Shown here: positions 1 to 16,557 of the stretch, piece by piece
How positions within the stretch are numbered: the first letter of the stretch is position 1
How the letters are laid out: the number at the start of each line of letters is the position of its first letter
Assembly: GCF_051307035.1 (NCBI RefSeq)
Contig: NZ_CP195537.1
Span: 11,126-43,125 of the forward strand
Direction of reading: 5' to 3'
From: Psychrobacter sp. DM4
GTDB lineage: Bacteria > Pseudomonadota > Gammaproteobacteria > Pseudomonadales > Moraxellaceae
Length of the DNA: 32,000 bases
Notes under the pieces: model-generated
The model's database searches: none
Told to the model about the DNA's origin: nothing
What the model saw: the letters and a program-made list of their open reading frames with translations, nothing else
Position numbers and translations under genes: made by a program

Positions 1-682
1 GCGCTTGCAGACGATCTCTCTTTACATATCTACCTGCTTGTTCTCTAAAGTTAGCAGATGAAGGTGACGTTAAATACTCAGTAATTAGCAAACCTTGGTT
101 TTCAACAATTTCACGAGCCAAATCTATGTTTTGAGCTGGTAAGATATTATTTAACGGGCTGGGTAAGATAGCAACAGTTCGAGCGTTTAATGCTAGTGCC
201 TTTCTATGCGAGATGCTATCACAGCCATCTGCTAAGCCACTGACAATTGTGGCATCTTGTTTTTTGATGAACTGTTCAACTACCAGGTTTTCATCAACCT
301 CGGTTTCTTTATCTGGATTGAGCACACCAATAACAGCAACATTATAATTATCAGGAGATAGTAAATCCAAATCTCCTTTGTAGAACAAGAAGCTTGGGAT
401 ATCACCTTTTTTCTTTAGTTCTCGACGAAGAGTTGGGTAGTTATCATCGCCTATTGCTACCACACCATCACAACTATCGCCTAAGTTTTCAATCAAACGT
501 TCAAGCCTAGCCTTCATTTCTAAAAAAGCTTGCTCTGTTACGCTGGCATCCTTTGCCGCAATGAGCTCTACAATAGCTTCATAAGGGATCTTAGTTGTTA
601 GATTATTATTTAACCATGCCTCCCCTATACCTTTGAAGGTGCGAGCTGTTAAAACATTTAAAGCATGATCTGTTATTTTCAT
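1..682 (-). CDS. DprA/Smf-like (SLOG/Rossmann) protein, C-terminus cut by the window edge
   Basis: My own minus-strand translation from the ATG at 682-680 gives MKITDHALNVLTARTFKGIGEAWL...NVAVIGVLNPDKE...TIVSGLADGCDSISHRKALALNARTVAILPSPLNNILPAQN...GLLITEY...FREQAGRYVKRDRLQA. This matches DprA hallmarks (SGlAxGxDxxxHrxAL, tvAvL..l..i.P, F..RNR-like tail). It is absent from the ORF track because the frame stays open to position 1. Confidence 0.6.
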   Translation of the reverse strand, partial: MKITDHALNVLTARTFKGIGEAWLNNNLTTKIPYEAIVELIAAKDASVTEQAFLEMKARLERLIENLGDSCDGVVAIGDDNYPTLRRELKKKGDIPSFLFYKGDLDLLSPDNYNVAVIGVLNPDKETEVDENLVVEQFIKKQDATIVSGLADGCDSISHRKALALNARTVAILPSPLNNILPAQNIDLAREIVENQGLLITEYLTSPSSANFREQAGRYVKRDRLQA

Positions 683-720
683 TGAAAGCCTACTTGTAAA
701 AATATATTTATTTCAATAAT

Positions 721-1398
721 TTAGTTACGATTTGCAGCAAAAACTATTTCGTCTGGGAGGTCATCTGGAAACGTATAGTGTGGTACACGAGCAATGCTAA
801 AAAAAGTAACGTCCTTCGCACCACAATCTAATAGACATTGAATAGCATCTTCGTCTATATTGACATTTTTTGTATAAATATCATCAATTAATAGTACGTG
901 TTTTCCTCTTACTTTTTCCGAAATATCACAAGTATCTCTAGTAATACCGATATAAGGCATACTGCCACCTCCACCACCTATTGAACTACGAGATAAGTGA
1001 GTGGTACAGGTATCAGTATGACGAACTATAAAGTCGCTACCATCCACTAATTTATTCTTCGAATGTATGACCAACGGAATTATTTCTCTAATAGCTTCAG
1101 CAAACTTTAACTGTGTGCCATTGTAGGTATTGAGGTTTTTTGACCTAGGTACGACACATATAGTGACTTCATCATCTTCTATATTAGATAGTATGCTTGA
1201 AAGTTCATTTGCAAGATTGAACTTAACTGAGTTTTTAGCAGCTAATAATTTAGATGGGTACTCATTACCAAACGTGTTTTTTAAAATATTAAGATAGTTA
1301 GGGTTACTAGGTTTATTAAGCCCATAATATGCACAGCGATAGAATGATTTTATATCTTTGTTCAAATACTCGTTTTTTACGATGGTGTATTGATTCAC
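721..1398 (-). CDS. ComF-like phosphoribosyltransferase-fold protein with a degenerate PRPP loop
   Basis: 225-aa ORF with a GTG start and GAGGA 7 nt upstream. It has the ComF-like strand VTICVVPRSK and the PRTase acidic strand HVLLIDDIYT. The usual TTGxT loop reads TKNVN. Ends with ..VTFFSIAR. Confidence 0.6.
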   Translation of the reverse strand: MNQYTIVKNEYLNKDIKSFYRCAYYGLNKPSNPNYLNILKNTFGNEYPSKLLAAKNSVKFNLANELSSILSNIEDDEVTICVVPRSKNLNTYNGTQLKFAEAIREIIPLVIHSKNKLVDGSDFIVRHTDTCTTHLSRSSIGGGGGSMPYIGITRDTCDISEKVRGKHVLLIDDIYTKNVNIDEDAIQCLLDCGAKDVTFFSIARVPHYTFPDDLPDEIVFAANRN

Positions 1399-1412
1399 GT
1401 CTTAATCCTCGC

Positions 1413-1961
1413 TTATAAGCTGATCTTGGTTATGTTTTTATTTGGTATTCCAGCTATATTGGCGTGGAGTACTTCATTCTCATCATCCTCAAAAACGAGA
1501 ACCTTTGTAGAGCAAATATTGATTTCATTAAGTGCATATTGATACTTATTGTGTATATCCTTGCAAAAAAAGATTTTATCGAACAATTTAGCGCAGTTGT
1601 GATGATCAAGAAGCTGAATAACCCTTTCAGGAGAAGCTTTAGTTACTAAACATACCTTAGTAGTGTTCTTATTACTAATTAAGAAATTAATTAGCTCTTT
1701 ATTAAGGTAGGTATGATCTAAAAACTGTGAGTTATACCCAATCTTTTCTTTTTGGATTTTTTCGGCTAATACCTCATCAGTGCAGTACTTATCAACCACT
1801 TCTTTAGTGATTCTTTTTACTACAGGAATTTTTATGTATGGCATGTAGGAATCAATTGCTTTTTTATAAGCTGAATTATTAGCTTGGTCAGTATGAATCA
1901 AGGTGCCATCCAAATCGGTTAATATTGCTTGAATATTGTTCAATATATCGTGCCTCATCAA
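1413..1961 (-). CDS. HAD-superfamily phosphatase-like hydrolase
   Basis: 182 aa. Motif I is AILTDLDGTL (DxDGT), motif II is VCLVTKAS, and the acidic motif IV is VFEDDENE. The start is probably the ATG at 1958, because the first codon is TTG. Confidence 0.7.
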   Translation of the reverse strand: MMRHDILNNIQAILTDLDGTLIHTDQANNSAYKKAIDSYMPYIKIPVVKRITKEVVDKYCTDEVLAEKIQKEKIGYNSQFLDHTYLNKELINFLISNKNTTKVCLVTKASPERVIQLLDHHNCAKLFDKIFFCKDIHNKYQYALNEINICSTKVLVFEDDENEVLHANIAGIPNKNITKISL

Positions 1962-2016
1962 TAAGTACAGGCTAGCTTAGTGTATGGTCTATATCTATTC
2001 TACGAACTGTACCTAC

Positions 2017-2394
2017 CTACTTTGGAATATCCTGTCTTTTAAGTAATATTGCATCAAAATCAATGTAATTACTAACCTTTAAAATATTTTCACTCTCTAG
2101 AACTTCAATACAACTACCTGAAACCATATTTTTTAGTTCGCTATCGTGCTTATCATACTGTTCATCCAATACATGCTTAATGAGGTCTATATTTCTGGAA
2201 TCTTCAAGCAGGTAGTTTGCTAAATACGAAGATAAGCTACTAGTGAACATATTTATGACTGACTCTTGAGTGACAGTGCTAACGGTTTCTACCATGGACG
2301 TTATTTCAGCCGGTGTTCTTACTGAGATAGTTGAGTAGTGCTCGTCGTTAGTGGCTTTTTGTGCCTCATGGAATTTTTCAAATAGTGAAGTCAT
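2017..2394 (-). CDS. hypothetical acidic protein (125 aa)
   Basis: Clean ORF with AGGAAA about 10 nt upstream, co-directional with its neighbours. I recognise no motif. Confidence 0.4.
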   Translation of the reverse strand: MTSLFEKFHEAQKATNDEHYSTISVRTPAEITSMVETVSTVTQESVINMFTSSLSSYLANYLLEDSRNIDLIKHVLDEQYDKHDSELKNMVSGSCIEVLESENILKVSNYIDFDAILLKRQDIPK

Positions 2395-2449
2395 TAGTGT
2401 TTCCTAGTTATTTATAAAATATTTACTTATTACCGACTTTAAAATTAGG

Positions 2450-2911
2450 TTATCCTTGTTGTATCTTCGCCTTACTTCTATCAAGTAATTCTTTCAGGTT
2501 CTTCAAAGACTGTTCTGCTTGGCCTGATTTTAACCCCTCATTCAAGACATGCATTTGGTTTTCCAACAAACTCTCTGGATGGACAATGCTACGACTGATA
2601 TTCCATAATTCCCACGAGAAATTTCTATTAGATTTAGTACTATTCTTACTTAGAAATTCAGCATATTCAGTTATGAGTAGTGCCTCCTCACTTGAGCACT
2701 GTCGCAAAAAATCTTTCAACGTTTCTTCAATAAAATCATTGATGATCTGTGAGCGAGACACGCCATTGCGTTTAGCAATCGCATCAATAATTAACAAATC
2801 AAGATTGTTAAACCTCATATTAAACTTTCTAAATTCCGGCTTATCAAAAGCTGTGGTTGACTCTTCCAACTTATCAAAAGCCTCTTCATGAAATTCGATT
2901 TTTAAACTCAT
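2450..2911 (-). CDS. ribbon-helix-helix (CopG/Arc-like) DNA-binding protein with a roughly 80-aa C-terminal extension
   Basis: FNMRFNNLDLLIIDAIAKRNGVSRSQIINDFIEETL fits the strand-helix-helix pattern of RHH proteins. Confidence 0.5.
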   Translation of the reverse strand: MSLKIEFHEEAFDKLEESTTAFDKPEFRKFNMRFNNLDLLIIDAIAKRNGVSRSQIINDFIEETLKDFLRQCSSEEALLITEYAEFLSKNSTKSNRNFSWELWNISRSIVHPESLLENQMHVLNEGLKSGQAEQSLKNLKELLDRSKAKIQQG

Positions 2912-2999
2912 AGATCTTGCCTTTATATTGATAACAAATAATTATGGGTATTTGAAACTACTACTGTTTTGTATATATTTTATACGGATACATTGGTTG

Positions 3000-3185
3000 C
3001 TAACCTTTTTCGAGTCGCTTCATAAGGTCGAGCAGACTGTTATATAAGCCTTCTACTTCAGCTTTCTTTAAAACGACCTTGTCTGAATTTTTTATATCCG
3101 TTCCACAGCTTAATGCTAGAGCAACCACTGGACTAGAAATATTGCGTTGTTTTTGTCGAACTTGGCAATGTTTAGTAGCTTTCAT
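3000..3185 (-). CDS. small hypothetical protein (61 aa), possibly DUF4258-like
   Basis: Strong AAGGAG about 8 nt upstream. The N-terminus TKHCQVRQKQRNIS resembles the H..R..qRgIs motif of DUF4258-type small toxins. This is a weak call from memory. Confidence 0.3.
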   Translation of the reverse strand: MKATKHCQVRQKQRNISSPVVALALSCGTDIKNSDKVVLKKAEVEGLYNSLLDLMKRLEKG

Positions 3186-3239
3186 AATAATACTCCTTGG
3201 TAGTTTTAATATTTATTCAAATTATTACTTTTATAATAG

Positions 3240-3515
3240 TTAATAACATACTTTTAACTTACTCATGCCAGGCTTTCTATTCATAGAGTTGTTATGATAG
3301 GTTGTGATAATATTATCTTCTGCAACTATCAAAGTAATTCCACCGGTTCTTCTTAAAAATTCAATATCTTTAAGAAGCTTTTTTAGCTTCTTTATTGCCG
3401 CCTTGCTTTCCTTTGGTGTCATTCCTTGTATATCCTGCCCTAAACCACTTGCCTTAAGGATTTTATCAGTATATTTCAACGTATTACTATTCATAATAGG
3501 ACCTATAAATTTCAA
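3240..3515 (-). CDS. small hypothetical protein (84-91 aa)
   Basis: The ORF begins with TTG at 3515, and there is an internal ATG at 3494. The C-terminal LKKLLKDIEFLRRTGGITLIVAEDNIITTYH resembles the tail expected for the family of the neighbouring 61-aa ORF. Confidence 0.3.
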   Translation of the reverse strand: MKFIGPIMNSNTLKYTDKILKASGLGQDIQGMTPKESKAAIKKLKKLLKDIEFLRRTGGITLIVAEDNIITTYHNNSMNRKPGMSKLKVCY

Positions 3516-3686
3516 GAAGATAGTTTCTATTGATTGAACAACCTATGGATTACAGTATGATACATACTAATATAATAGTCAATATATGAATAAATATAAA
3601 TTCAAATAATAAATAAATTTTTAAGAGAACTAGATATCCAACTCTCTGAACCTATCAATAGACTATACCCAAAACATAAAACCTTT

Positions 3687-3758
3687 AAATGATAATCTAT
3701 CTATCATTAGACTTTTTTATATTATTAAATGATAGTAATATCTTGTTATTATCAATGA
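3687..3758. promoter_or_regulatory. candidate res/operator dyads upstream of the serine recombinase
   Basis: AAATGATAatctatcTATCATT (3687-3708) and AAATGATAgtaatatcttgttatTATCAATGA (3727-3758) share TGATA/TATCA half sites. Confidence 0.3.
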
Positions 3759-3794
3759 GCACTAATTATTAAGTCTAAATAATAGAGGTGGGTT

Positions 3795-4388
3795 ATGACT
3801 GTTCGTATTTATGTGAGAGCCAGCACTAAGGATCAAGACGCTACCAGAGCATTGGCTGATTTGGTGGCTTTCAGTACAAGTTATGATGATAACCATGTTG
3901 AGTACGTCGAGCATTTCAGTGGTACAAAGCTCGATAGACCATTATTAGCCAAGCTGCTAAAGGACGCTGAGCAAGGCGATATTCTACTGGTTGAAAGCGT
4001 GGATAGATTAAGCCGATTATCTCAAGATGATTTTGCAATTCTAAAGCAGCGTATCAAAGACAAAGGCTTGCGATTGGTGGTGGCTGATCTACCAACGACG
4101 CATACAGTTAATAATGGCATGACAGGTGAGATCCTAACAGTGATTAACCATATGCTGATCGACTTATTAGCAACGATGGCAAAGCTTGATAACGACAAGC
4201 GTAGAGAGCGTATCAAGCAGGGATTGGCTAACAGTGGCTATAAGCCCTCCGGTAAGAAGCCTAATACAACGAAACACAATCGTATTAGAGAATTAGACAG
4301 TCAAGGCAATATGACAAAAGAGGAAATCGCTAAGGCAGTTGGTGTTGGCGTAGCTACTGTTTACCGGGTGTTAAAGCCAGGCTCATAG
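3795..4388 (+). CDS. serine recombinase (resolvase/invertase family)
   Basis: N-terminal RIYVRASTKDQ carries the catalytic Ser, followed by LLVESVDRLSR. The C-terminal HTH is MTKEEIAKAVGVGVATVYRVLK. Confidence 0.85.
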   Translation: MTVRIYVRASTKDQDATRALADLVAFSTSYDDNHVEYVEHFSGTKLDRPLLAKLLKDAEQGDILLVESVDRLSRLSQDDFAILKQRIKDKGLRLVVADLPTTHTVNNGMTGEILTVINHMLIDLLATMAKLDNDKRRERIKQGLANSGYKPSGKKPNTTKHNRIRELDSQGNMTKEEIAKAVGVGVATVYRVLKPGS

Positions 4389-4694: not shown

Positions 4695-6278
4695 ATGATG
4701 AACACCCCTACCTCAGACCCTATTGGCGCAGCATGGCTTATCCGTCATGCAAGCATCGAGCTGGTTTCGCCTTTATATGTCAGCAGTAGTATCGGTGGGC
4801 GCAGACAAACCTATAAAGACGGTGACGTCATTCATAACGCTTATCAGGAAACCGCGCGTCCACTGGACACAATCATTGCGCACTTACAATTTCACATGCG
4901 TCATGAAGTACTGAGTTTAGAGTTACTGACTCGTCTGTTTGAGCAGATAGGGGCTGATGATGTACAAGCATGGGTAAACGCTGAGCCCACAGGCAGCTAT
5001 GCCCGTAGAATGGCTTTCTTGTATGAATGGCTCATGGGTCAGCAGTTAGCAGTACCGAGTAATTTAGGCGGTAACTATGTGGACGCTTTAGATGCTAAGA
5101 AGCAGGTTACTTCAAGCCCTGCGCATGTCATCAAGAATGCTCGTTGGCGTATCAATGACAATCTAGCAGGAACCCGTCATTTCTGTCCGATACTGGTGAA
5201 AACAGAGGCCTTTACGCAAGCAGCTGCACTCGATATTGCCACAATGGTTGACAAACTTAACGATGAATTTGGGCAAGACTTACTGATGCGCGCCTCCGTA
5301 TGGATGACCCTACGGGAAAGCAAAGCGAGCTTTACTATAGAAGGTGAGGGAAAAGAGTTAAAACGTATTGAACGTTTTGCCGATGTAATGGCACGGCGTA
5401 CCGGCAAGGGCGATATTCCGCTTGATCCTGAGTCGCTAGCAGAGTTGCAACAAGAGATACTTGGTAGCAAAACGGTCATCCAGCAGTATGGCGTCCGTCA
5501 ATCTCCAGTTTTTGTGTCGCATACTCAGGTCAATGGCTTTAAAGAGATTGTGCACTATATTGCGCCACCTGCTGATGACATTGCTGAAAAGCTCAAAGGG
5601 TTACAGGCATTTATGGAAAAGACCGAGGGACAATCGGCACTGATACGTAGTGCGGTTGCTTCCTTTGCTTTTGTGTATATTCATCCGCTAGCGGATGGCA
5701 ATGGCCGAGTACATCGCTTCCTAATTAACGATGTACTCAGACGCGACCAGATCATTCATGAGCCGATTATCTTACCTATATCGCAAGCCATCGCTGAGCA
5801 TCCCTCAGACCGTCATGCCTATGATAAAATTTTAGACCGTGTATCCGTGCCACTTATGGAGCAAATCCGTGATCATTACAGCTTTGATAAACAAGCGATT
5901 ACTTACCCTGATGGTATTCGCTCAAACTTAAATTTTGGAAATACTCACCTAATTCAACCTGCATGGCGCTTTATGGATCTAACGCCTCACGTTCAGTACT
6001 TATCAGGACTCATTGCTCATGTTATTGAAAAAGAGATGCATAACGAGTCACAGTACCTAAGAAAGCATGACCATGCACGACTGGCGATAAAAGAGATTGT
6101 TGAGATGCCCAACAGCTATGCCGATAGAATCATTCGCAGTATGCTGCAAAATAAGGGTGCTAAAAGTAATAAGTTACTTAAGGATTATCCATTTTTAACA
6201 AATGATGAGGTTTGGGACGATATTTTCTCTGTCGTTGTAGAGACCTTTAAAGATGAGACAGATGAATTGAATAGGTAG
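4695..6278 (+). CDS. Fic-domain protein (class II architecture, putative AMPylase)
   Basis: The Fic motif HPLADGNGRVHR lies at nt 5682-5717. The inhibitory-helix motif SFTIEG ([S/T]xxxE[G/N]) lies at nt 5328-5345, N-terminal to the core. Confidence 0.85.
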   Translation: MMNTPTSDPIGAAWLIRHASIELVSPLYVSSSIGGRRQTYKDGDVIHNAYQETARPLDTIIAHLQFHMRHEVLSLELLTRLFEQIGADDVQAWVNAEPTGSYARRMAFLYEWLMGQQLAVPSNLGGNYVDALDAKKQVTSSPAHVIKNARWRINDNLAGTRHFCPILVKTEAFTQAAALDIATMVDKLNDEFGQDLLMRASVWMTLRESKASFTIEGEGKELKRIERFADVMARRTGKGDIPLDPESLAELQQEILGSKTVIQQYGVRQSPVFVSHTQVNGFKEIVHYIAPPADDIAEKLKGLQAFMEKTEGQSALIRSAVASFAFVYIHPLADGNGRVHRFLINDVLRRDQIIHEPIILPISQAIAEHPSDRHAYDKILDRVSVPLMEQIRDHYSFDKQAITYPDGIRSNLNFGNTHLIQPAWRFMDLTPHVQYLSGLIAHVIEKEMHNESQYLRKHDHARLAIKEIVEMPNSYADRIIRSMLQNKGAKSNKLLKDYPFLTNDEVWDDIFSVVVETFKDETDELNR

Positions 6279-8273: not shown

Positions 8274-8981
8274 TTATTTATTACGCTTACTTTCTAAAAA
8301 TATCATGTCAATTATAATCAATGCGACACCGACACAGACACCTATATCTGCAACATTGAAAAGAGGATAATTCCAGACATCAGCATAATGCACATGGATA
8401 AAGTCAACCACTTTACCAATTCTTAAACGATCGATTAAGTTGCCAATCGCACCACCAAGCATTAAGGCCAACCCCATAGATAATAGCTTGGCTGCACGTG
8501 GCGCTTTGATTAAATAAACCGTTAAAAAGATAGCCATTACAAAAGCTAAGCCTGAGAAAAACCATTTCTGCCAACCGCCAGCATTGGCTAAAAAGCTAAA
8601 TGCTGCCCCATAGTTATAAGCGAGTGTCCAGTTGAGAAATGGTTCAATGACCGGTACGGGGTCATTGAACGCTAATGTGGTTTGGGCCAACCACTTAGTC
8701 CATTGATCAAGTATTAATACCATTATCGCCAACAAATACCAGATAAAAGCGCGACTGCCATTGGCAACCATTTTTGGCATTTTGTCCAACTTATCTTTAG
8801 GTGTTATTGAGTTGCCTGAAGTCACGTACATAGCTTTAGGCGTATGATTTATGGTTTTAGAGTCAATCGATTGATGAGTACTACTCACAGCTATAGGTAC
8901 CTTCTTGTCAGCAATATTAGTACTAGCCGATTCAACGCTATTCAATTTAGTACTATCTAATCTGTCGGTAGATTCAGTCAT
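8274..8981 (-). CDS. lspA: lipoprotein signal peptidase II with a roughly 70-aa N-terminal extension
   Basis: LDQWTKW...NYGAAFSFL...GGAIGNLIDR...VVDF...FNVADIGVCVG are LspA signatures. AAGGA lies 8 nt before the ATG at 8981, and the alternative start at 8771 has a poor RBS. Confidence 0.9.
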   Translation of the reverse strand: MTESTDRLDSTKLNSVESASTNIADKKVPIAVSSTHQSIDSKTINHTPKAMYVTSGNSITPKDKLDKMPKMVANGSRAFIWYLLAIMVLILDQWTKWLAQTTLAFNDPVPVIEPFLNWTLAYNYGAAFSFLANAGGWQKWFFSGLAFVMAIFLTVYLIKAPRAAKLLSMGLALMLGGAIGNLIDRLRIGKVVDFIHVHYADVWNYPLFNVADIGVCVGVALIIIDMIFLESKRNK

Positions 8982-9122
8982 AGTTGTTTCCTTTATCTAT
9001 GTTTATACAATGAACAATGTTAAACGTATATGTTTTTGGTATACGATTATTAATCGCGCCACTTTCATAAACGGCTCCACTTACCGCTCTGGTATTATGA
9101 AACTTACGGTAATAATTTTTTA

Positions 9123-10403
9123 TTAGGGAATCTGTTGATTGATTTCAACATTAACCTGAGTCTGTTCAACGCTAATCATTATAGGATTACCCGATAAGTC
9201 GCCTGATTCTGCTATGGCATTACCGCTATGACTAATACGAGCAACGACTGCTAACTGAGTTTTGTCACTACGAGCTGAATTTAACGTGCGATCTGGCATC
9301 ATCGCATCAAGATTGCTTAAGCGGATACTAGCCTCACCTTGCTTGATAATACTAATGGGTAAACGTTTGGCGGCAAACGGAGGGCCCCCTTTCACATCAC
9401 GTATCGCTACAAACAACACATCATCAGCTTTCACTAACGGTAATAAATTAGCGTTAATTTTCACTGTCACGTCAATACCTTCTAGCGCTTGCTTTTCTTG
9501 CGTGCTAACGTAGTTGCTTAACTCATCTAAGCTTGCTAAAGCTTTAGTATGATCACCTGGTTTGGCCACAATGCTGCCTTGTAAGCGTTTAATCCAACCT
9601 TGCGCTTGGGCAAAGTTACTACTACGAGTCTCACCCATTGCCATGAGCATTTGAGCCCGTTCATGCTGCGGATTCTTAGCTAATATAGCTTGTAATAGAC
9701 GGCGAATATTGGCGTCTAACTGACCTTCATTAACAAAAAAACTAGTCTGAGCATAAGTAGTAGCAATCTCCTCGTTATCAGGTGCTAAACGATAGGCACG
9801 CGATAAGGCTTCTAACGCAGAGTCAGTCGCCTCCATCGATAAGAAAAGTTCAGATAGGCGCATCCAGCGATTAGGATCATCAGCGTTACGATGGACGTTG
9901 GTCTGCATAGCGCTAATCAACTGACGACCGTTTTCAGTCGCCCACTTTGGTGGCTTATCAATCTTAGCCGTCAATAGGTCATCAGCCACTTGTCCTACTT
10001 TGTCCTCGCTTGTCCACAAATCAAACACGGGCGTACGATTGCCTATTAGTAAGTACGCCATTGCAGCCAATATTGGGATCCAAGCTGCGACAATTAAACG
10101 GCTTTTGACATCAGGGGTGACCATAGGTGTTATCTGACGCTGCGCATCTAATAGCTGACGCTCAAGCTCCAGCTTTTGATTTTGATAATGGCTATTATTA
10201 ATAGTACCGCTGTCTTTATCTGTTTGTAGCTCAGCTAAACGTTCGCGAAATACTGCAACATTAATATCTAGCAGTTGATTGTCTATTGGTTTGGACTGCA
10301 AACGCGGTGCTCGTAGCCATGGCATAATAGCAATTAGCGCAAATATAAGAGCAATCAGCAAGCTTAGAGCTACAAATAAGCCAAAAGTAGAAAATAGGGT
10401 CAT
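9123..10403 (-). CDS. ccmI: cytochrome c maturation protein CcmI/CycH (TM + TPR)
   Basis: N-terminal TM segments, then NVAVFRERLAELQTD..., a second TM and a TPR-like C-terminus. Overlaps ccmH by 4 bp. Confidence 0.75.
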   Translation of the reverse strand: MTLFSTFGLFVALSLLIALIFALIAIMPWLRAPRLQSKPIDNQLLDINVAVFRERLAELQTDKDSGTINNSHYQNQKLELERQLLDAQRQITPMVTPDVKSRLIVAAWIPILAAMAYLLIGNRTPVFDLWTSEDKVGQVADDLLTAKIDKPPKWATENGRQLISAMQTNVHRNADDPNRWMRLSELFLSMEATDSALEALSRAYRLAPDNEEIATTYAQTSFFVNEGQLDANIRRLLQAILAKNPQHERAQMLMAMGETRSSNFAQAQGWIKRLQGSIVAKPGDHTKALASLDELSNYVSTQEKQALEGIDVTVKINANLLPLVKADDVLFVAIRDVKGGPPFAAKRLPISIIKQGEASIRLSNLDAMMPDRTLNSARSDKTQLAVVARISHSGNAIAESGDLSGNPIMISVEQTQVNVEINQQIP

Positions 10404-10975
10404 TTTTTGTCCTCTATGCTAGTAATATCGTGGTCGACATTCTTAGCTTGCGATAATAGACGATCAAGCTCAGCCTTTTCCGCAGAGGTCAAGGCAGCAG
10501 TACTGTTCACTGTAACGCCGTTTTGGCCACGGGCGACAACTTGGCGGCGTTTACTTTGCCAAAACCAGCCGATGATTAAGACGAGCAATAATAGTGGTGG
10601 AAAAAACCATAGGATCCATGTCGATGGTCGCATAGGCGGCTTGTAGCTAATAAAGTCACCGTAGCGCTCTTGCATATAGGCGCGTATTTCAGCATCACTA
10701 CGTCTATCTTTAATTAAATCATAGACTTTTTGCTTTAGATCCTGTGCAATCGGTGCATCAGAGCCTGCAAGGTTTTGATTTTGGCATTTTGGGCAGCGAA
10801 ACTCTTCTATTAATCCACGATACTGAGCTTCTTGCTGTGGTGAGTCAAAATCGTATACGTCAATAGCTGCGTTTGCCGTCATGTTAAGCAGACACGCTAG
10901 TATTAAGCTTGCTAGTTTTAAAACTATATTGAGTTTTAGTTGAGGAGCTCTTATTCGAGTAACGTTCATTTGCAC
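10400..10975 (-). CDS. ccmH: cytochrome c maturation thiol-redox protein CcmH
   Basis: FRCPKCQNQNLAGSDAPIAQDLK...MQERYGDFISYKPP contains the CxxC signature. GTG start. Confidence 0.9.
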   Translation of the reverse strand: MQMNVTRIRAPQLKLNIVLKLASLILACLLNMTANAAIDVYDFDSPQQEAQYRGLIEEFRCPKCQNQNLAGSDAPIAQDLKQKVYDLIKDRRSDAEIRAYMQERYGDFISYKPPMRPSTWILWFFPPLLLLVLIIGWFWQSKRRQVVARGQNGVTVNSTAALTSAEKAELDRLLSQAKNVDHDITSIEDKK

Positions 10976-11026
10976 ATCTCCTCAACCTGAATGAGATCAG
11001 GACTATCGTTGTTCTTATTAGCCTCA

Positions 11027-11647
11027 TTAAGTACGGTCAGGCTCATTAAGTACGGTCAGGCACGGCTTAACACGCTGTTGCCAATTGGCTTCATTAATCT
11101 CACCAACAATATGCTGACGAATGATGCCATCTCCATCCACAACAAAGGTTTCGGGCGCACCAGTTATGCCTAAGTCTAGAGCAAACTGACCTAATGAATC
11201 CTGAATAGACATAGAAAATGGATCACCGCCTCGGTTTAAGTAACTGAGCGCATTACCAATCTCATCCTTATAATTCACACCAACGATATCAACGCCACGC
11301 TCTTCTAATTGCATTAAAAACGGGTGCTCAATAACGCAAGTTGGGCACCACGAGCCCCAAACATTAATTAAAAACGGCTTATCCGGCAAATTATCATTGG
11401 TGATAGTACGGGTAGTATCTGCTAATAAAGGCAGCTCAAAGGTAGGAACTGGGCGCTCAAGAGCGGTATTGGTCACAATATTTGTTGGTTTACCTAAGCG
11501 CATATACAATATCACTACTAATCCAAAAAAGAGGATAAGCGGAATTAAGAACCATAGCTTCGTCTGCTTTTTTTTCATTGTCTTTGGGTTACGCTGCTTA
11601 CTGTTTTGGCTATCTTTTTGCTCAGGAGTATTATTCGACATAGTCAT
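11027..11647 (-). CDS. ccmG: periplasmic thioredoxin-like CcmG/DsbE
   Basis: WGSWCPTC and GAPETFVVDGDGIIR signatures. The 3' end is rewritten by a 19-bp tandem duplication (see findings). Confidence 0.9.
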   Translation of the reverse strand: MTMSNNTPEQKDSQNSKQRNPKTMKKKQTKLWFLIPLILFFGLVVILYMRLGKPTNIVTNTALERPVPTFELPLLADTTRTITNDNLPDKPFLINVWGSWCPTCVIEHPFLMQLEERGVDIVGVNYKDEIGNALSYLNRGGDPFSMSIQDSLGQFALDLGITGAPETFVVDGDGIIRQHIVGEINEANWQQRVKPCLTVLNEPDRT

Positions 11648-13696
11648 TTATTTCTCCTTTAGTGTCGACATCGTCGATGCTGAGATTGCCTGCTCAATAG
11701 CTACCTCATTGACTCCATCAGTAGCCAGATCACCAGTAACTAGCAACGGAGCTTTAACTTTTTTGATGCGGTATCGTTTATCAAGCATGCTAATTAATCC
11801 ACCTAGAGCCATGATAATTGCCCCTAACCAAATCCAGCGAATTAATGGTTTTACATAAATCCTTAATGCCCATTGGTTACTACCATCGGCAATAGGTTCG
11901 CCCAGTGCGACATAAACATCGCGCATTAGGCTAGCATCAATGGCCGCCTCAGTGGTCGGCATAGTGCTAATGATATAAGTACGCTTTTCTGGATTCAGTT
12001 TCGCCGCTTCACGACCGTTTTTGGATACCACGACTTGCGCCTGCGTTGCATCAAAGTTACTCCCCTTTATTTCAAAAAATTCAGTTACTTCAAAATCGTA
12101 ACCTTGAACATTGACTGTATCGCCAATACCCATTGCTACGTCACGCTCAATGCTCAAACTACTAGTAAAGGCTATGCCAATGACAGCAACCAATACGCCA
12201 ATATGAGCAGTCTGTTGACCCCAATAGCTCAGACGCAACTGCCGCAAACCGTTAAAAAGATTAGGCGCATTCTTAGTTTTATCTTTAAAATCAACTGCCA
12301 TCCATAGCAGTACCCAAAAGCTAACGGCTAAAGTCACACCAATATTAAGCATAGACGATGGATTAACAAAGTAAGTAATAATGGCGGCTAATACTAAGCT
12401 ACTAACGGCGATGACCATGCCTATACCCAGTAGTGGACGGGTGTCTTTTTTCCAGCGAATATTTGAGCCCATACCCATAGCTATTAATAACAGCCACGTT
12501 AAAGGTACAAATAATGCATTAAAATAAGGAGGGCCAACGGACACTTGTCCTAAACCAAAGGCATCAGCGATAATAGGGTAAAGGGTGCCGAGCAGCACCA
12601 CTAAGGTTGCAATCAAAATGATGGCGTTGTTGATCACTAAAAAGGACTCACGTGAAATCAGCTGATATTGACTTTCAACGGTTAAACGCCAACCGCGAAC
12701 GGCAAACATCAATAGACCACTACCGATGATAATGCCAAGAATAGCTAAGATGACCAAACCACGCGTCGGATCAGCGGCAAACGAATGCACTGAGGTAAGG
12801 ACTCCAGAGCGTACCAGGAACGTGCCAAGCAAGCTTAAGGCAAAGGCGAAAATAGCCAGCATGATGGTCCATGCTTTAAACACCCCGCGCTTTTCAGTGA
12901 CTGCTAATGAATGCAGCAATGCTAAGCCGACAAGCCAAGGCATAAACGAGGCGTTCTCTACCGGATCCCAAAACCACCAACCGCCCCAGCCAAGCTCGTA
13001 GTAGGCCCACCACGAGCCCAGTGCAATACCAATGGTCAAAAATCCCCAAGCCGCGAGCGCCCATGGACGTGACCAGCGTGTCCAAGCAGCATCTAAACGC
13101 CCTTCCCACAATGCCGCCATACAAAATGCAAAAGGTACTACCATACCCACATAGCCCATATATAACATGGGCGGGTGAATAATCAGACCGAAATCTTGTA
13201 GGACAGGATTTAAATCAGCGCCATCGACCGCTAGATTGGGTAAGGTACGCTCAAACGGTGACGAGGTAAATATCAGCATTGTTAGCATCATTAACTGTAC
13301 ACCGGCCAAAATAACTAATACCCGCGCACGCATTGATAACGGCAAGCCGCGACTAAAGTATGATACCAGTGCACACCATGTGGCCATGATGGTCATCCAT
13401 AGCAGCAAAGAGCCCTCGTGTCCGCCCCATGTCGCCGATAACTTATAGTACCAAGGCAACAGCGTATTGGAATGCTGCGCGACGTAACTGAGGCTAAAAT
13501 CATTATAATAAAAACCTGCTATCAAAGCACCAAATGACGTTATCATGGCGGCAAACTGTGCCCAAGCTAAGCTAGGGGCTAGTCGTTGCCAAGCAACTTG
13601 GTTACGAATAACACCAATAGTTGGCAGAATTACCTGCAATAACGCCAATACAAAAGCGGTAAGCAAGGCAAAATAGCCCAATTCTGTAATCAACAT
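11648..13696 (-). CDS. ccmF: heme lyase subunit CcmF
   Basis: 682 aa and polytopic, with the WWD motif WGGWWFWDPVENASFMPWL. Abuts ccmG with no gap. Confidence 0.95.
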   Translation of the reverse strand: MLITELGYFALLTAFVLALLQVILPTIGVIRNQVAWQRLAPSLAWAQFAAMITSFGALIAGFYYNDFSLSYVAQHSNTLLPWYYKLSATWGGHEGSLLLWMTIMATWCALVSYFSRGLPLSMRARVLVILAGVQLMMLTMLIFTSSPFERTLPNLAVDGADLNPVLQDFGLIIHPPMLYMGYVGMVVPFAFCMAALWEGRLDAAWTRWSRPWALAAWGFLTIGIALGSWWAYYELGWGGWWFWDPVENASFMPWLVGLALLHSLAVTEKRGVFKAWTIMLAIFAFALSLLGTFLVRSGVLTSVHSFAADPTRGLVILAILGIIIGSGLLMFAVRGWRLTVESQYQLISRESFLVINNAIILIATLVVLLGTLYPIIADAFGLGQVSVGPPYFNALFVPLTWLLLIAMGMGSNIRWKKDTRPLLGIGMVIAVSSLVLAAIITYFVNPSSMLNIGVTLAVSFWVLLWMAVDFKDKTKNAPNLFNGLRQLRLSYWGQQTAHIGVLVAVIGIAFTSSLSIERDVAMGIGDTVNVQGYDFEVTEFFEIKGSNFDATQAQVVVSKNGREAAKLNPEKRTYIISTMPTTEAAIDASLMRDVYVALGEPIADGSNQWALRIYVKPLIRWIWLGAIIMALGGLISMLDKRYRIKKVKAPLLVTGDLATDGVNEVAIEQAISASTMSTLKEK

Positions 13697-13817
13697 ACGG
13701 TCTAACCTTATTTACTCTAATGCGGTTGCAGTTTACTGTAGCGGTGGAATTTTTATTATTAGAACCCACCCCCGAAATCTGCTGCTATCTCTAGTTTTTA
13801 ATTGATTTCGAAGGGTT

Positions 13818-16004
13818 TTATTTAACTACTTTAGGCGCAGTTACCATTGAAGGTGCGCCTTTAAAGCGCAGTAAACGTAACGCATTGAGAGTAACGAGCA
13901 CTGTTGCTCCAGCATCAGCTAGAACCGCAATCCATAGTCCAGTAATGCCGAATACGGTCGTGATCAGAAAGACGCCTTTGAGACCTAAAGCGAAAATGAC
14001 GTTCTGATGAATGTTGCGCATGGTGGCACGCGAAAGTGCAATCAGATGGGCCATGTCTGTAACACGACTTTTTAATAATGCGATATCGGCCGTCTCAATG
14101 GCCACATCGGTACCACCACCCATCGCGATGCCAACATCAGCGGTTGCTAGTGCTGGCGCATCGTTAATACCATCACCCACCATCGCTATTTTGCTGTTAT
14201 TCTTCATCTCGTTAAGCAAGCGCAGTTTGTCCTCAGGCAACAGCTCAGCTTCCCATTCCACGTCTAAATTACTGGCAAGTGCTTGAGCAGTTAAGCGGTT
14301 GTCGCCTGTGAGCATAACAGAGCGCACACCCATCGCTTTGAGCTGAGCCACACCTTCATGAGCGTCGTCTCGTAACTCGTCTCGTAGTGCAACCAATCCA
14401 AGCACCGCGCGACTTTGCTCATCGAACAGCACTGAAACGGTTTTGCCCTCATTTTGTAGCGCCTCGATTTGTGTCTGTTGCTCGGCTGAAATTGATGCTT
14501 CATCTTCGGCGTAAACAGGCGAACCAATAGCGAACGCACGCCCAGCGACAGTCGCATGCACCGCTTTACCCGCAGTTGCAGAAGCGTTGGAGGCCACAGG
14601 TATAACAACTTTAGCAGCTTCAGCATGACTGACAATGGCTTCAGCAAGCGGATGACTAGAACCTGTCTCTACACTGGCAAAGAGTGCCAATACCTTATCT
14701 TTACCTTGAGAACCCGCATACTGTTGAGTAAAGGCAACAATATTAGTAACGCGTGGCTTACCTTCAGTTAAAGTGCCGGTTTTATCAAAAGCAACTGTTT
14801 TCACTTGGCCGATGATTTCTAAAGCACTACCGCCCTTGATCAGCAAGCCGCGGCGCGCACCGACCGCTAGACCAGAGGCGATAGCAGCTGGTGTTGAGAG
14901 CACAAGAGCACAAGGACAAGCGATCAATAATAAGGCTAGACCTCGATATAACCAAGTTGACCAATCTCCGCCCATGGTTAACGGTGGGACGATGATAATT
15001 AGGGCGGCAATAGCCATCACAGCCGGTGTATAGTAACGACTGAATTTCTCAATAAAACGGGCAGTGGGTGCTTTGGAAGCTTGCGCTTGCTCTACCAAAT
15101 CAATAATGCGCGAAATGGTGTTATCGGCGGCTGTCTTTTCTACGCGCACTTGGAGCACACCATCGATGTTAATTGACCCTGCAAATACATTGTCACCCAT
15201 CGTCTTGGCAACAGGAACAGACTCTCCCGTCACGGGCGAATCATCAAGGCTGGACGCACCTTGAACAATGGAACCATCAGCAGATACCCTATCTCCAGGA
15301 CGCACCAGCACAAGGTCATTCACTTGTAATGAAGTCGCTGGAACGTTACGCTGCCCACCTTGAGCATCAAGTAAAATTGCACTTTTCGGAACCAGCGATG
15401 ATAAGGCTCTGATGCCAGCGCGAGCGCGATCAGCAGCGATACTCTCAAACAGTTCACCGATTGAGAACAAAAAGACAACTGCTGCGGCCTCTTCAGCTTC
15501 ACCAATGATAAGTGCGCCAAGCACGGCGACGGACATCAGCGTTTCAATTGAAAAGAATGAACCTGTTTTAGCCAGTGCTAAGGCTTTGCGTGCAAATGGA
15601 AAAACGCCTACAATCACAGCGATGGCAAACACCCATATCCCATAAGCGGGGAACAGTAGTGACAGTGCATAAGCGCTGCCCATCAAAATACCGAGACCAA
15701 CAACCTGTTTGCCTTTTTGAGTTTGCCACCACCGCTTATCCTGCGGAGCCATCTGATTGTCGCTGTCAATATCAATAGCCGATACAGTTTGTTGACCAGT
15801 ATTGGCAGATATACCGAACCCTAGGCTTTTGATGGTTTTTTCGATATCACTAGCCTGAGTCGGCGCATCAGGGGCTAAATTTAGCTCTAGCGTTTCTGTA
15901 GCGAAATTCAGCTGAACATCAGAAACCCCAGGCATACGTTTCAAAGCTGTTTCAATCTTGCCGATGCAACTGGCACAGTCCATACCTTCAATATGATATT
16001 TCAT
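13818..16004 (-). CDS. cadA: P1B-type heavy-metal (Cd/Zn/Pb-type) translocating ATPase
   Basis: N-terminal HMA domain GMDCASC, TM6 CPC (IACPCALVLSTP), DKTGTLT and GDGINDAP. Metal specificity is inferred only from the adjacent regulator and operator. Confidence 0.9.
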   Translation of the reverse strand: MKYHIEGMDCASCIGKIETALKRMPGVSDVQLNFATETLELNLAPDAPTQASDIEKTIKSLGFGISANTGQQTVSAIDIDSDNQMAPQDKRWWQTQKGKQVVGLGILMGSAYALSLLFPAYGIWVFAIAVIVGVFPFARKALALAKTGSFFSIETLMSVAVLGALIIGEAEEAAAVVFLFSIGELFESIAADRARAGIRALSSLVPKSAILLDAQGGQRNVPATSLQVNDLVLVRPGDRVSADGSIVQGASSLDDSPVTGESVPVAKTMGDNVFAGSINIDGVLQVRVEKTAADNTISRIIDLVEQAQASKAPTARFIEKFSRYYTPAVMAIAALIIIVPPLTMGGDWSTWLYRGLALLLIACPCALVLSTPAAIASGLAVGARRGLLIKGGSALEIIGQVKTVAFDKTGTLTEGKPRVTNIVAFTQQYAGSQGKDKVLALFASVETGSSHPLAEAIVSHAEAAKVVIPVASNASATAGKAVHATVAGRAFAIGSPVYAEDEASISAEQQTQIEALQNEGKTVSVLFDEQSRAVLGLVALRDELRDDAHEGVAQLKAMGVRSVMLTGDNRLTAQALASNLDVEWEAELLPEDKLRLLNEMKNNSKIAMVGDGINDAPALATADVGIAMGGGTDVAIETADIALLKSRVTDMAHLIALSRATMRNIHQNVIFALGLKGVFLITTVFGITGLWIAVLADAGATVLVTLNALRLLRFKGAPSMVTAPKVVK

Positions 16005-16029
16005 AATAATTTACCCTTTGAATAATGAT

Positions 16030-16060
16030 ATTATGAACCCTATAGTGGCTTTAGAGTCAA
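16030..16060 (-). promoter_or_regulatory. MerR-type promoter with a 19-bp spacer and operator dyad for cadA
   Basis: The minus strand reads TTGACT-ctaaagccactatagggtt-CATAAT. The -35 is the reverse complement of 16055-16060 and the -10 is the reverse complement of 16030-16035. The imperfect dyad ACCCTATAG-tgg-CTTTAGAGT spans 16037-16057. Confidence 0.7.
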
Positions 16061-16146
16061 GGTTATTTATCTACAGTTTCGTAATTTTAATTTCTCTAGC
16101 GCTAGTCTTTACAGCCACTTTAATTATTTAAATCATAGAGGTTGTT

Positions 16147-16557
16147 ATGACAATCAAAATTGGTGAGCTCGCTAAACGCACAGGTGCCACAGTAGAAACC
16201 ATTCGCTATTATGAAAAAGAGCGTTTATTACCCGAGCCTTTTCGTAGCGAAGGGAATTATCGTTTATATAATGAAGAGCACATTGAGCGTCTACAATTTA
16301 TCCTACATTGCCGTACGCTCGATATGGCTTTAGATGATGTGCGAATCTTACTTGAATACTGGGAGTCGCCTGACAAGGACTGCGGCGATGTGAATAACTT
16401 GCTAGATGAGCACATTCATGCTGTGGAAATACGAATGGAAGAACTGATGCACTTAAAGCATCACTTGACCGTTTTGCGCCAGAAATGTGCAAGTAGTGCA
16501 CCAGCGTCATCATGTGGCATTTTAAACGCGCTTGTCGATAACTCCTGTCATGAGTAA
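16147..16557 (+). CDS. cadR: MerR-family metal-responsive regulator (CadR/PbrR/ZntR-like)
   Basis: The HTH is IGELAKRTGATVETIRYYEKERLL. A dimerisation helix and Cys residues (C78, C113, C122, C133) follow. Divergent from cadA. Confidence 0.8.
   Translation: MTIKIGELAKRTGATVETIRYYEKERLLPEPFRSEGNYRLYNEEHIERLQFILHCRTLDMALDDVRILLEYWESPDKDCGDVNNLLDEHIHAVEIRMEELMHLKHHLTVLRQKCASSAPASSCGILNALVDNSCHE

Follow-up and report, generated by a model that had tools for sequence, protein, structure and literature searches.

A probable member of the ShosTA family on a Psychrobacter-type plasmid, with its toxin split over a phosphoribosyltransferase gene and a separate HAD phosphatase gene

Results

Gene organization of the locus

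The window analyzed here is a 32,000-nucleotide stretch of contig NZ_CP195537.1 from Psychrobacter sp. DM4. At its left end, five co-directional genes lie on the minus strand and, in the ORF listing of the window, are separated by gaps of 55, 55, 14, and 38 bp, with coordinates and spacing as described in the original prediction. They encode, in this order, a 153-aa protein, an acidic 125-aa protein, a HAD phosphatase, a phosphoribosyltransferase (PRTase), and a DprA-like protein. Related contigs keep all five as ORFs, which shows that they are real genes rather than products of chance.

The 153-aa protein (2450–2911, minus strand) has a probable N-terminal ribbon-helix-helix (RHH) domain of the CopG/BrnA-like type. 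This earlier call stays tentative, as the matches to Pfam RHH_1 (0.0089), NCBIfam BrnA (3.4e-4), and a PHROG CopG-like repressor (0.019) are mutually consistent but all under their cut-offs. The 125-aa protein (2017–2394, minus strand) is acidic, as had been claimed (pI 4.68, 21 D+E versus 11 K+R), and was without a match in Pfam, PADLOC, NCBIfam, PHROG, or the PDB. Two further minus-strand genes encode small basic proteins. The first, orf61 (3000–3185, 61 aa), is DUF4258-like, based on a 44% identical Moraxella osloensis homologue that scores 28.9 bits against Pfam DUF4258 (cut-off 25). The second, orf91 (3240–3515, 84–91 aa), had no family match in Pfam, NCBIfam, or PHROG. A resolvase gene (3795–4388) is divergent from orf91.

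The proposed placement in a plasmid accessory region was borne out by the Rep3, KfrA, MobA/MobL, and IS3 transposase genes found within the window. The cassette has the resolvase and a Fic gene as neighbors, the Fic gene matching the PADLOC model PDC-S24 (3e-176), and in relatives a type III-like R-M set and a UvrD/PD-(D/E)XK protein adjoin the DprA-like gene, placing defense-type genes around it.

The DprA-like gene

The DprA-like frame (1–682, minus strand) begins with an ATG at 682, 38 nt past the end of the PRTase gene, and runs off position 1, leaving 227 N-terminal codons inside the window. The full gene encodes 330 aa in close relatives with 96.5% DNA identity, and 215 of the 227 residues match over the common part of the protein. 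The original prediction had proposed completing this gene from the adjoining sequence; the 330-aa version comes from these relatives only, and the copy on the window's own molecule was not recovered. Profile searches agreed with the predicted DprA identity, giving matches to Pfam DNA_processg_A (3.7e-30) and to PADLOC ShosA (PDLC03961, 3.5e-43; 2.3e-47 for the full-length relative), and the top PDB sequence matches were ShosA entries (9vzo and 8zva, ∼8e-15). As expected of ShosA, the gene next to the PRTase specifies a DprA-like protein with a length near 330 aa. At 78 of the 80 related loci surveyed below, a DprA-like gene likewise turned up together with the PRTase, fused to it in two cases.

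In E. coli ShosA, R139 and R234 bind ssDNA, and both are essential for antitoxin activity. The window protein has only one of the two: the arginine position of the GSR motif, equivalent to R139, is Leu121, and it is a leucine in 69 of 78 clade DprA-like proteins, where the loop that follows is acidic. R222, the equivalent of R234, is kept in 76 of the 78, and the GLAxGxD...H core is invariant in the clade. No LOG-type catalytic signature was identified in the protein. By analogy with E. coli, we regard the DprA-like protein as a putative ShosA-type antitoxin, and the sequence comparison indicates that an antitoxin mechanism with ssDNA binding may not carry over to a clade without R139.

The PRTase gene

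The PRTase gene (721–1398, minus strand) starts with GTG, eight nt behind a GAGGA in the 14-nt HAD–PRTase spacer. As to its predicted fold, the match to Pfam Pribosyltran (0.0033) is under the cut-off, whereas the broad PADLOC ShosT model PDLC03962 gave 6.5e-12, and the best PDB fold matches of an AlphaFold model (pLDDT 84) were the ShosT structures 8zvd, 8zvb, and 8zvc, with ComF also among them. The fold match to ShosT is moderate (TM 0.48), the E. coli-specific PADLOC ShosT model PDLC03012 was unmatched, and phmmer and hmmsearch of the PRTase against PDB ShosT returned zero matches, sequence similarity to E. coli ShosT being remote.

Comparison of the two families by hhalign gave a probability of 93.9% (E 1.5e-7) over 132 columns, with RHT and GKxxLxIDD as common motifs. 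D172/D173 in LLIDDIYT align with IDDFCT of ShosT and match D331/D332, the acidic PRPP-loop pair that is required for toxicity (PMC11961720). The locus therefore encodes a protein with the PRTase fold and acidic pair of ShosT, and both PDLC03962 and hhalign provide a significant family-profile match. ShosT also contacts PRPP through K280 and R285, and an R285E substitution abolishes its toxicity; this segment falls in an 11-residue gap of the profile alignment and has no alignable counterpart in the PRTase. The family-invariant residues are D172/D173, R85, K87, and R126, the last three of which might stand in for K280/R285. At 225 aa, the PRTase is a putative ShosT-type catalytic module of the toxin and has no fused N-terminal hydrolase domain.

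The HAD gene and its association with the PRTase

The HAD gene (1413–1961, minus strand) encodes 182 aa from a TTG start or 181 aa from an ATG one codon further. That it specifies a HAD phosphatase with a DLDGT motif was confirmed by Pfam HAD_2 (5.2e-11, 43.4 bits versus a cut-off of 23.8), with DLDGT at residues 16–20; NCBIfam HAD-SF-IA-v3 (TIGR01509) scored 29.9 versus a cut-off of 29.4. The motif residues are D16, D18, and T20; T107; and E158 and D159. K139, within an NK consensus of the clade in the profile alignment, is the likely motif III lysine, its column being uncounted in the conservation tally. Of the 60 HADs compared in the clade, 58–59 keep DxDGT, 57 keep T107, and 58 keep E158. 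The AlphaFold model (pLDDT 91) has a helical cap and matched capped HAD phosphatases at a TM of about 0.7, and the protein is assigned to subfamily IA because it has motifs I–IV (DxDxT, S/T, K, ED/DD), with a C1 cap inserted after the first of them and ahead of the second. It is thus predicted to be a phosphatase with an intact catalytic motif set.

The original prediction treated the HAD gene as an addition to a two-gene system. This view does not hold, as E. coli ShosT already carries, in a single 424-aa chain, a HAD-like hydrolase (PPase) domain at the N-terminus followed by a PRTase (PMC11961720), its family matches both Pfam HAD_2/Hydrolase and Pribosyltran, and a separate HAD is the majority arrangement in the clade. 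From its domain content, the HAD protein appears to correspond, as a free-standing gene product, to the hydrolase domain at the N-terminus of ShosT. The hhalign match between the two is weak (21.6%, E 1e-3), and ShosT is absent from the top 50 fold matches of the HAD model. Since their homology beyond the HAD fold is weak, the two HAD modules could be separate recruitments.

A search of 185,579 species-representative genomes found 203 relatives, and the survey of related loci covered the best 80 of these, which span many phyla. The HAD gene co-occurs with the pair: a homologue accompanies the PRTase at 62 of the 80 loci (directly upstream at 51, fused at 3, 646–761 nt upstream at 2, and after the DprA-like gene at 6), and it is wholly absent at about a dozen informative loci. 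In pairwise comparison, HAD divergence tracks that of the PRTase (rho 0.64) and of the DprA-like protein (rho 0.82), to an extent comparable with the tracking between the PRTase and the DprA-like protein. Because the hydrolase is encoded in an adjacent gene, 14 nt away, and is fused at only 3 of 80 loci, it would function in trans.

Discussion

A split ShosTA-like system

Judged by the families to which the proteins were assigned, their domain layout, their conservation, and their catalytic motifs, positions 1–1961 of the window probably encode a three-gene member of the ShosTA toxin-antitoxin (TA)/abortive-infection family, carried as cargo of a Psychrobacter-type plasmid and with its toxin split over two genes. 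The DprA+PRTase system described in Rousset 2022 and Millman 2022 goes by the name ShosTA; it is a bona fide TA system with an unstable antitoxin, and its E. coli version defends against T7 and lambda. The earlier proposal that the PRTase and the DprA-like protein belong to the mobile-element DprA+PRTase defense/TA family, now named ShosTA, is in agreement with the PADLOC matches and with Rousset 2022.

The locus shares with ShosTA the same enzyme set (a HAD-fold hydrolase, a non-canonical PRTase with RHT and the acidic PRPP-loop pair, and a ∼330-aa DprA-like protein), tight gene linkage, a mobile-element location, and the same PADLOC models. It differs in that the hydrolase is its own gene and not an N-terminal domain, and in that the HAD has a C1 cap and a DxDGT nucleophile, both lost from the E. 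coli-type domain: that domain has no cap, and DxDx[TVS] occurs in only 1 of 102 E. coli-type ShosT family members. The gene order here is HAD–PRTase–DprA (toxin first), compared with shosA then shosT in E. coli; the PRTase similarity is remote, with K280 and R285 not alignable; the antitoxin has a leucine where E. coli ShosA has R139; and the system lies on a plasmid and not in a P2-prophage hotspot.

In the PsyrTA (RqlHI) system, too, the toxin has a PRTase domain and the antitoxin resembles DprA, and the DprA-like protein here gives a weak match to PADLOC PsyrA (1.6e-16). The PRTase, however, matches weakly and only at the C-terminal positions 638–683 of the 689-position PsyrT model (E 0.048). 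The N-terminal part of PsyrT is a RecQ-like helicase region; Pfam found no helicase domain among the five proteins of the cassette, none of which corresponds to full-length PsyrT. In addition, a HAD is not described for PsyrTA.

The original prediction considered the mechanism unknown, a statement overtaken by two mechanistic ShosTA papers (PMC11961720 and PMC12961424) and the structures 8ZVA–8ZVD and 9VZO. For toxicity, the antitoxin role, the trigger, and the chemistry, we reason by analogy with E. coli ShosTA. The PRTase would bind PRPP and pass phosphoribose from it to some acceptor, and the HAD would make this step irreversible, either via PPi hydrolysis or by removing the 5'-phosphate from the product, which is the likelier of the two for a capped Asp-nucleophile HAD. 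The previously suggested nucleotide pathway from PRTase to HAD is still plausible. The disturbed PRPP and nucleotide pools would lead to replication damage, which the DprA-like protein would counter by an indirect route (type IV TA) for as long as no infecting phage has removed or titrated it.

Alternative interpretations

An unlikely alternative, which still deserves some weight, is that these genes form a nucleoside-type metabolite or signal pathway and not a ShosTA-like TA system, in which the PRTase and an active HAD would make a modified nucleoside and the DprA-like SLOG-fold protein would handle that nucleotide and not ssDNA. In contrast to the ShosT N-terminal domain, the HAD retains every catalytic motif together with a substrate cap, and PRTase+HAD pairs of Ter systems are predicted nucleoside- or nucleotide-derivative synthases (PMC7824862). 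The leucine at the GSR arginine for ssDNA binding and the acidic loop next to it also fit such a pathway, and even for the E. coli toxin ShosT no acceptor base has come to light. The DprA-like protein, however, scores strongly as DprA/ShosA, retains the second essential arginine (R222) and the invariant core, and shows none of the LOG-type signature. As a difference from Ter clusters, the partner here is a DprA-like protein; neither the window nor the sequence flanking the locus in relatives contains TerB, TerC, TerD, or TelA genes, and the PRTase did not match the Ter-system families PRTase_1/2/3 of Pfam. The nucleotide handling originally suggested for the SLOG-fold protein goes against the published E. 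coli ShosA data, which report ssDNA and RecA binding, but is conceivable for this clade because the GSR arginine has been lost.

We give a similarly small probability to the whole alternative that the clade is unlike the E. coli model and combines a two-step PRTase+HAD pathway with a nucleotide-binding or -processing DprA-like protein and a portable leader. Such a pathway in this phylum-spanning sister clade may convert PRPP and a base to a nucleotide and then to a nucleoside, and its outcome may be a toxic nucleoside or an irreversible PRPP drain. Lacking the GSR arginine, the DprA-like protein might therefore neutralize via the nucleotide product instead of via ssDNA/RecA-mediated repair.

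That the RHH-like, acidic, and HAD genes are all integral new parts of an enlarged, five-gene DprA-PRTase system is quite improbable. In its favor, the genes all point the same way with little space between them, and relatives whose PRTase is as little as 62% identical still have the seven-gene string orf91–orf61–RHH–acidic–HAD–PRTase–DprA-like, even where the sequence further downstream differs. Against this, the small genes and the core separate in both directions. Locus L091 carries a close core (DprA-like 92%, HAD 77%, and PRTase 66% identical) without any of the four small genes, and at least nine metagenomic loci and a M. osloensis plasmid carry the small genes without HAD–PRTase–DprA and ahead of unrelated conflict-type cargo (L092, L093, L098–L104, and L105). 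Among the 80 related genomic loci, the small genes occur only at the Psychrobacter locus L004 (0 of 79 others), and similarity between loci with different cargo stops about 3–30 nt from the stop codon of the acidic gene. An obligatory five-gene partnership is largely refuted by this separation, and the two small upstream proteins, predicted to be parts of the system, drop out of it. In the favored reading, orf91, orf61, the RHH-like gene, and the acidic gene, in this order, are a separate leader ahead of interchangeable cargo and lie outside the ShosTA-like core. Within the leader, the RHH-like gene is linked to the acidic gene in every case found, orf61 is kept in all leader copies whose contig is long enough, and orf91 is conserved alongside them. 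The leader genes may regulate whatever follows. In the less likely reading outlined above, they might make up a portable platform, for regulation or for insertion, that receives interchangeable conflict systems on plasmids of Moraxellaceae.

There is very little to recommend a module that serves mainly plasmid addiction (post-segregational killing) without a role in phage defense. Its Rep3/MobA plasmid location next to a resolvase and the unstable antitoxin of ShosTA would suit addiction, but addiction is compatible with defense of the kind that ShosTA provides in E. coli, defense genes are neighbors, and most of the clade members examined come from contigs in which no plasmid genes are obvious, among them the chromosomes NZ_LR735258, NZ_CP159478, and NZ_CP019721.

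Natural competence is common in Moraxellaceae, DprA and ComF-type PRTases are both competence proteins, and the cassette resembles DprA/Smf and ComFC in having the Rossmann/SLOG fold of DprA and a type I PRTase fold of the ComF kind, with weak comF/GntX matches on the PRPP loop and ComF among the fold matches. Yet a housekeeping pair that is plasmid-borne by chance is scarcely credible, in line with the original prediction, as scores fall well below equivalog level (96.5 versus 191.15 bits for NCBIfam dprA, TIGR00732; 79.6 versus 495 for PRK10736; and 21.2 versus 233.55 bits for comF, TIGR00201, over PRTase residues 161–204 only), the PRTase lacks the zinc-finger region found at the N-terminus of ComF, a leucine replaces the GSR arginine, and the best matches are defense models for a HAD-linked cassette in a defense context, carried by plasmids and close to integrases or transposases.

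Implications for the ShosTA family

The DprA+PRTase pair was already known as ShosTA; what is new is the three-gene version with a separate HAD gene. ShosTA is a validated anti-phage system, and its only studied version has a degenerate, capless HAD-like domain that is minor for toxicity. In the widespread sister clade, by comparison of sequences, the hydrolase is a separate, co-evolving gene with intact catalytic motifs, which suggests a genuine phosphatase step in the original toxin chemistry. Because both enzymes can be tested separately, the split system is cleaner for finding the acceptor of the PRTase. Because an arginine on which E. coli ShosA depends has been lost here, the ssDNA/RecA neutralization model may not extend to every member of the family. 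For annotation, the small upstream genes should not be counted in the system because they mark a variable cargo slot of Moraxellaceae plasmids, and the HAD gene should count as part of ShosTA-like systems.

A minus-strand gene cluster in a plasmid accessory region

The five co-directional minus-strand open reading frames that had been predicted at the start of the window, four of them complete and one cut by its edge, were borne out at their coordinates and with their gaps of 55, 55, 14, and 38 bp. They encode an RHH-like protein of 153 aa (2450-2911), an acidic protein of 125 aa and pI 4.68 (2017-2394), a HAD of 182 aa with DLDGT at residues 16-20 (1413-1961), a PRTase of 225 aa with a GTG start (721-1398), and a DprA-like protein whose gene begins with an ATG at 682 and runs off position 1. 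Pfam searches supported the DprA-like (DNA_processg_A, 3.7e-30) and HAD (HAD_2, 5.2e-11) assignments, but matches for the PRTase (Pribosyltran, 0.0033) and the RHH-like protein (RHH_1, 0.0089) were sub-threshold. Two further small genes, orf61 (3000-3185) and orf91 (3240-3515), lie upstream on the same strand and, with the RHH-like and acidic genes, form what we call the leader. A GAGGA is present in the 14-nt spacer ahead of the PRTase GTG. A promoter and terminator scan of positions 1-3800 was uninformative (16 promoter-like sites versus 17.5 expected and 1 terminator-like site versus 1.7), so the operon structure is based on gene spacing and conservation only.

The window is plasmid DNA, with genes for a Rep3 initiator, KfrA, a MobA/MobL relaxase, an IS3 transposase, and metal resistance, and genes for a resolvase and a Fic protein adjoin the cluster, as the original prediction had placed them. 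DNA matches in PLSDB covered the resolvase region only and came from Psychrobacter plasmids. The Fic-domain protein (527 aa, 4695-6278, plus strand) matches the PADLOC candidate PDC-S24 along its entire length (3.1e-176) and also SoFic (2.8e-21), and its gene is probably a second defence gene beside the cassette. Positions 8274-16004 and 18224-21789 contain genes for cytochrome c maturation (CcmF, CcmH, and a TPR CcmH/CycH protein), signal peptidase II, apolipoprotein N-acyltransferase, a heavy-metal P-type ATPase, a DUF411 (CopG-like) protein, and a CDF efflux protein; on one plasmid, such a combination of envelope-biogenesis and metal-resistance genes is unusual.

The PRTase and DprA-like proteins are related to ShosTA

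ShosTA is a toxin-antitoxin phage-defence system of the DprA+PRTase type that was found in P2 hotspots by Rousset et al. and likewise by Millman et al. The proposal that the DprA-like and PRTase genes are such a pair was supported by PADLOC, in which the DprA-like protein matched the antitoxin ShosA at 3.5e-43 (2.3e-47 for a full-length relative) and the PRTase matched the toxin ShosT at 6.5e-12. ShosA entries 8zva and 9vzo were the top PDB sequence matches of the DprA-like protein. In a Foldseek search with the AlphaFold-modelled PRTase (pLDDT 84), the top PDB match was ShosT 8zvd; further ShosT entries, ComF, and purine PRTases ranked next. PDB sequence searches with the PRTase, the HAD, a fused clade member, or the PRTase profile gave no ShosT match, so the link to ShosT is drawn from PADLOC, profile-profile comparison, and the fold search.

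Alignment of 102 E. coli-type ShosT proteins with the window PRTase family (hhalign) gave 93.9% probability and an E of 1.5e-7 over 132 columns, and both families have an RHT motif and a GKxxLxIDD PRPP loop. The invariant D172 and D173 of the window family are the counterparts of ShosT D331/D332, mutation of which abolishes toxicity (PMC11961720); the positions of ShosT K280 and R285 fall in a gap of this alignment. In E. coli, where the system lies in a P2-like prophage region, shosA (327 aa) is ahead of shosT (424 aa), whereas in the window the putative toxin genes come first and the antitoxin gene after. Together with the HAD, the PRTase and DprA-like proteins make up the enzyme set found in ShosTA, the putative toxin being divided between two genes.

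A HAD gene is part of the conserved core

Crystal structures of E. coli ShosT contain two domains, an N-terminal hydrolase and a C-terminal PRTase, and the hydrolase domain was likened by the authors to the HAD-superfamily pyrophosphatase BT2127 (PMC11961720). Pfam HAD matches on E. coli ShosT are weak; many members of the E. coli-type ShosT family have precomputed HAD_2/Hydrolase and Pribosyltran domains, with annotations that in some cases read "HAD hydrolase-like protein." The view that the HAD is an addition to a two-gene system therefore did not hold, since E. coli ShosT already has both hydrolase and PRTase domains.

To survey linkage, the PRTase alignment was scanned against one genome per GTDB species, and the best 80 loci of 203 relatives (L004-L083, here called the clade) were retained, spanning Pseudomonadota, Bacteroidota, Firmicutes, Chloroflexota, Patescibacteria, Spirochaetota, and an archaeal MAG. 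The gene content of these loci was determined by phmmer of the window proteins against mechanically called 6-frame ORFs. A DprA-like gene was present at 78 of the 80 PRTase loci, fused to the PRTase in 2. The HAD was encoded by a separate gene immediately upstream of the PRTase in 51 loci, by a gene 646-761 nt upstream in 2, by a gene downstream of the DprA-like gene in 6 (Veillonella, Clostridia), and as a HAD-PRTase fusion of 401-423 aa in 3. No HAD was detected in the remaining 18, of which five have <500 nt upstream and cannot be judged and one has a truncated HAD-like ORF. A HAD thus occurs in ∼83% of informative loci among the best 80 of 203 relatives. In pairwise divergence, the HAD tracks both partners as strongly as the partners track each other (Spearman 0.64 for HAD versus PRTase, 0.82 for HAD versus DprA-like, and 0.66 for PRTase versus DprA-like). 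From this prevalence and co-divergence, we conclude that the core is HAD-PRTase-DprA. A protein-level homologue search with the HAD recovered at least 20 relatives, mostly close.

The six Firmicutes loci (L060, L063, L076, L077, L080, and L081; Veillonella and Clostridia) have the gene order PRTase-DprA-HAD, and motif I of their HAD is DxDNT, not DxDGT.

The window HAD has an intact catalytic motif set

Of 60 clade HADs, 58-59 keep DxDGT, 57 have the Thr of motif II, and 58 have the Glu of motif IV. The window HAD has the full set and is predicted to be an ordinary C1-capped HAD-IA phosphatase (model pLDDT 91). In contrast to this separate, capped protein, the E. coli-type domain is fused and its motif is degenerate, with DxDx[TVS] in 1 of 102 family members (typical sequences are VIFSIxDV and VIFGDRDV) and with ∼40 residues between motifs I and II, a spacing that leaves no cap. 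The PPase activity of ShosT is weak and Mg-independent, and the effect of its R56A mutant is marginal (PMC11961720); the degenerate, capless motif set fits both observations.

Profile alignment of the HAD family with the ShosT N-terminal domain was weak (hhalign, 21.6%, E 1e-3), and ShosT was absent from the top 50 fold matches of the HAD model. Homology of the window HAD and the ShosT hydrolase module beyond their shared fold is thus weakly supported by these comparisons, and the two may instead be independent recruitments.

The DprA-like protein lacks the GSR arginine

Exact-protein look-ups found contigs with an identical gene string that are relatives, distinct from the window's own molecule: their DNA is 96.5% identical across the cluster, and 215 of 227 DprA-like residues are common (∼95%). 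They supplied the complete length of the DprA-like protein, 330 aa in every relative recovered, and its downstream genes; the window itself holds the N-terminal 227 codons, and its own 3′ part was not among the contigs found.

In E. coli ShosA, both ssDNA binding and antitoxin activity depend on each of two arginines, R139 (in the GSR motif of DprA) and R234. The R234 equivalent is kept in 76 of 78 clade DprA-like sequences. At the position of R139, the window protein has Leu121 (codon ∼320-322, minus strand), 69 of 78 clade members have Leu, and the loop that follows is acidic. E131, C154, and R218 are additional invariant residues of the clade proteins.

In a Leptospira MAG (L005, 2484-4115) and a WOR-3 MAG (L015, 5995-7635), the PRTase and DprA-like protein are fused (∼545 aa), and the HAD is still a separate upstream gene. 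An unstable-antitoxin model in its simple form does not easily accommodate a toxin covalently joined to its antitoxin in this way.

The core lies in a defence island

In relatives with long enough contigs, three genes are convergent with the DprA-like gene (11872-19304 in the related locus L001, and the same in L085 and L107). They encode a ResIII helicase with a C-terminal TnsA-like endonuclease (894 aa), an N6/N4 DNA methyltransferase with type II/III MTase matches (592-618 aa), and a UvrD helicase with a PD-(D/E)XK nuclease and GajB-like helicase matches (956 aa). These genes resemble a type III-like R-M system, or a related defence system of three genes, with an unusual make-up, and their presence beside the DprA-like gene makes the setting a defence island.

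The leader is separable from the core

The RHH-like and acidic genes are always accompanied by orf61 and orf91, and relatives with PRTase identities as low as 62% retain the seven-gene string of leader and core. A related locus, L091, has a close core (DprA-like 92%, HAD 77%, and PRTase 66% identical) and none of the four leader genes. Conversely, when metagenomes were scanned with the acidic protein, 13 loci were recovered. In nine of these (L092, L093, and L098-L104), the leader is complete or as complete as the contig end allows, and no homologue of HAD-PRTase-DprA was detected; beyond the acidic gene, five of these nine contigs continue for several kb. Moraxella osloensis plasmid pSKB0120-4 (L105, AP031476.1) likewise has the leader without the core. 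Because leader and core separate in both directions, the original prediction that the two small upstream proteins belong to the system was not upheld; the four small genes instead form a separable leader ahead of a cargo slot whose conflict-type content varies.

In core-less loci, the cargo after the leader varies, being unknown proteins of 529-555 aa, a methyltransferase-like protein with a 2OG-Fe(II) oxygenase, or an SSB with DUF488, DuOB, and an mSLOG-DUF4326 fusion (PADLOC candidate PDC-M45). Between loci with differing cargo, similarity stops within ∼3-30 nt of the stop codon of the acidic gene, and no conserved or recognisable recombination site was found at this junction in the compared loci. 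The acidic protein had no relatives among viral contigs, and neither it nor the RHH protein had a match in PDB or profile searches; a Moraxella orf61 homologue is above the Pfam DUF4258 cut-off. A regulatory role of the RHH protein is possible. On Moraxellaceae plasmids, the leader may serve conflict systems as a platform for regulation or insertion, or it may belong to a plasmid establishment region.

On pSKB0120-4, a viperin-family radical-SAM gene (L105, 2395-3321) lies ∼2 kb upstream of the leader, which is further evidence for the leader in defence-rich plasmid regions.

Discussion

With the family, architecture, conservation, and catalytic motifs of the cassette established, a mechanism can be proposed by analogy with E. 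coli ShosTA. The PRTase would consume PRPP on some acceptor, and the HAD would drive this reaction by PPi hydrolysis or by dephosphorylation of the nucleotide product, the latter being more likely for a capped HAD with an Asp nucleophile. The ensuing disturbance of the nucleotide pool would lead to replication damage. The DprA-like protein would offset this damage, though not by binding the toxin, for as long as it is neither removed nor titrated by infection.

Loss of the GSR arginine makes the antitoxin step the weakest link in this proposal: relative to E. coli ShosA, the window's antitoxin candidate has Leu at that position but retains the R234 equivalent. The main rival for this step, a nucleotide-directed role of the SLOG-fold DprA-like protein, appears to us unlikely. 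A housekeeping competence pair, already doubted in the original prediction, was rejected on NCBIfam competence cut-offs that were missed by a wide margin, and readings as PsyrTA or a Ter cluster were rejected on membership tests.

In the searchable literature, ShosTA is described only as a two-gene system, and no description of a split active-HAD form, its prevalence, or the arginine loss was found there, absences that are not in themselves proof. Since both proteins are already detected by existing PADLOC models, the ShosTA-like cassette is a variant of ShosTA and not a new system, and what was taken for an extension is mostly accounted for by the domains that ShosT is known to have. The split-HAD variant is directly relevant to ShosT chemistry and to how widely the ShosA mechanism applies.
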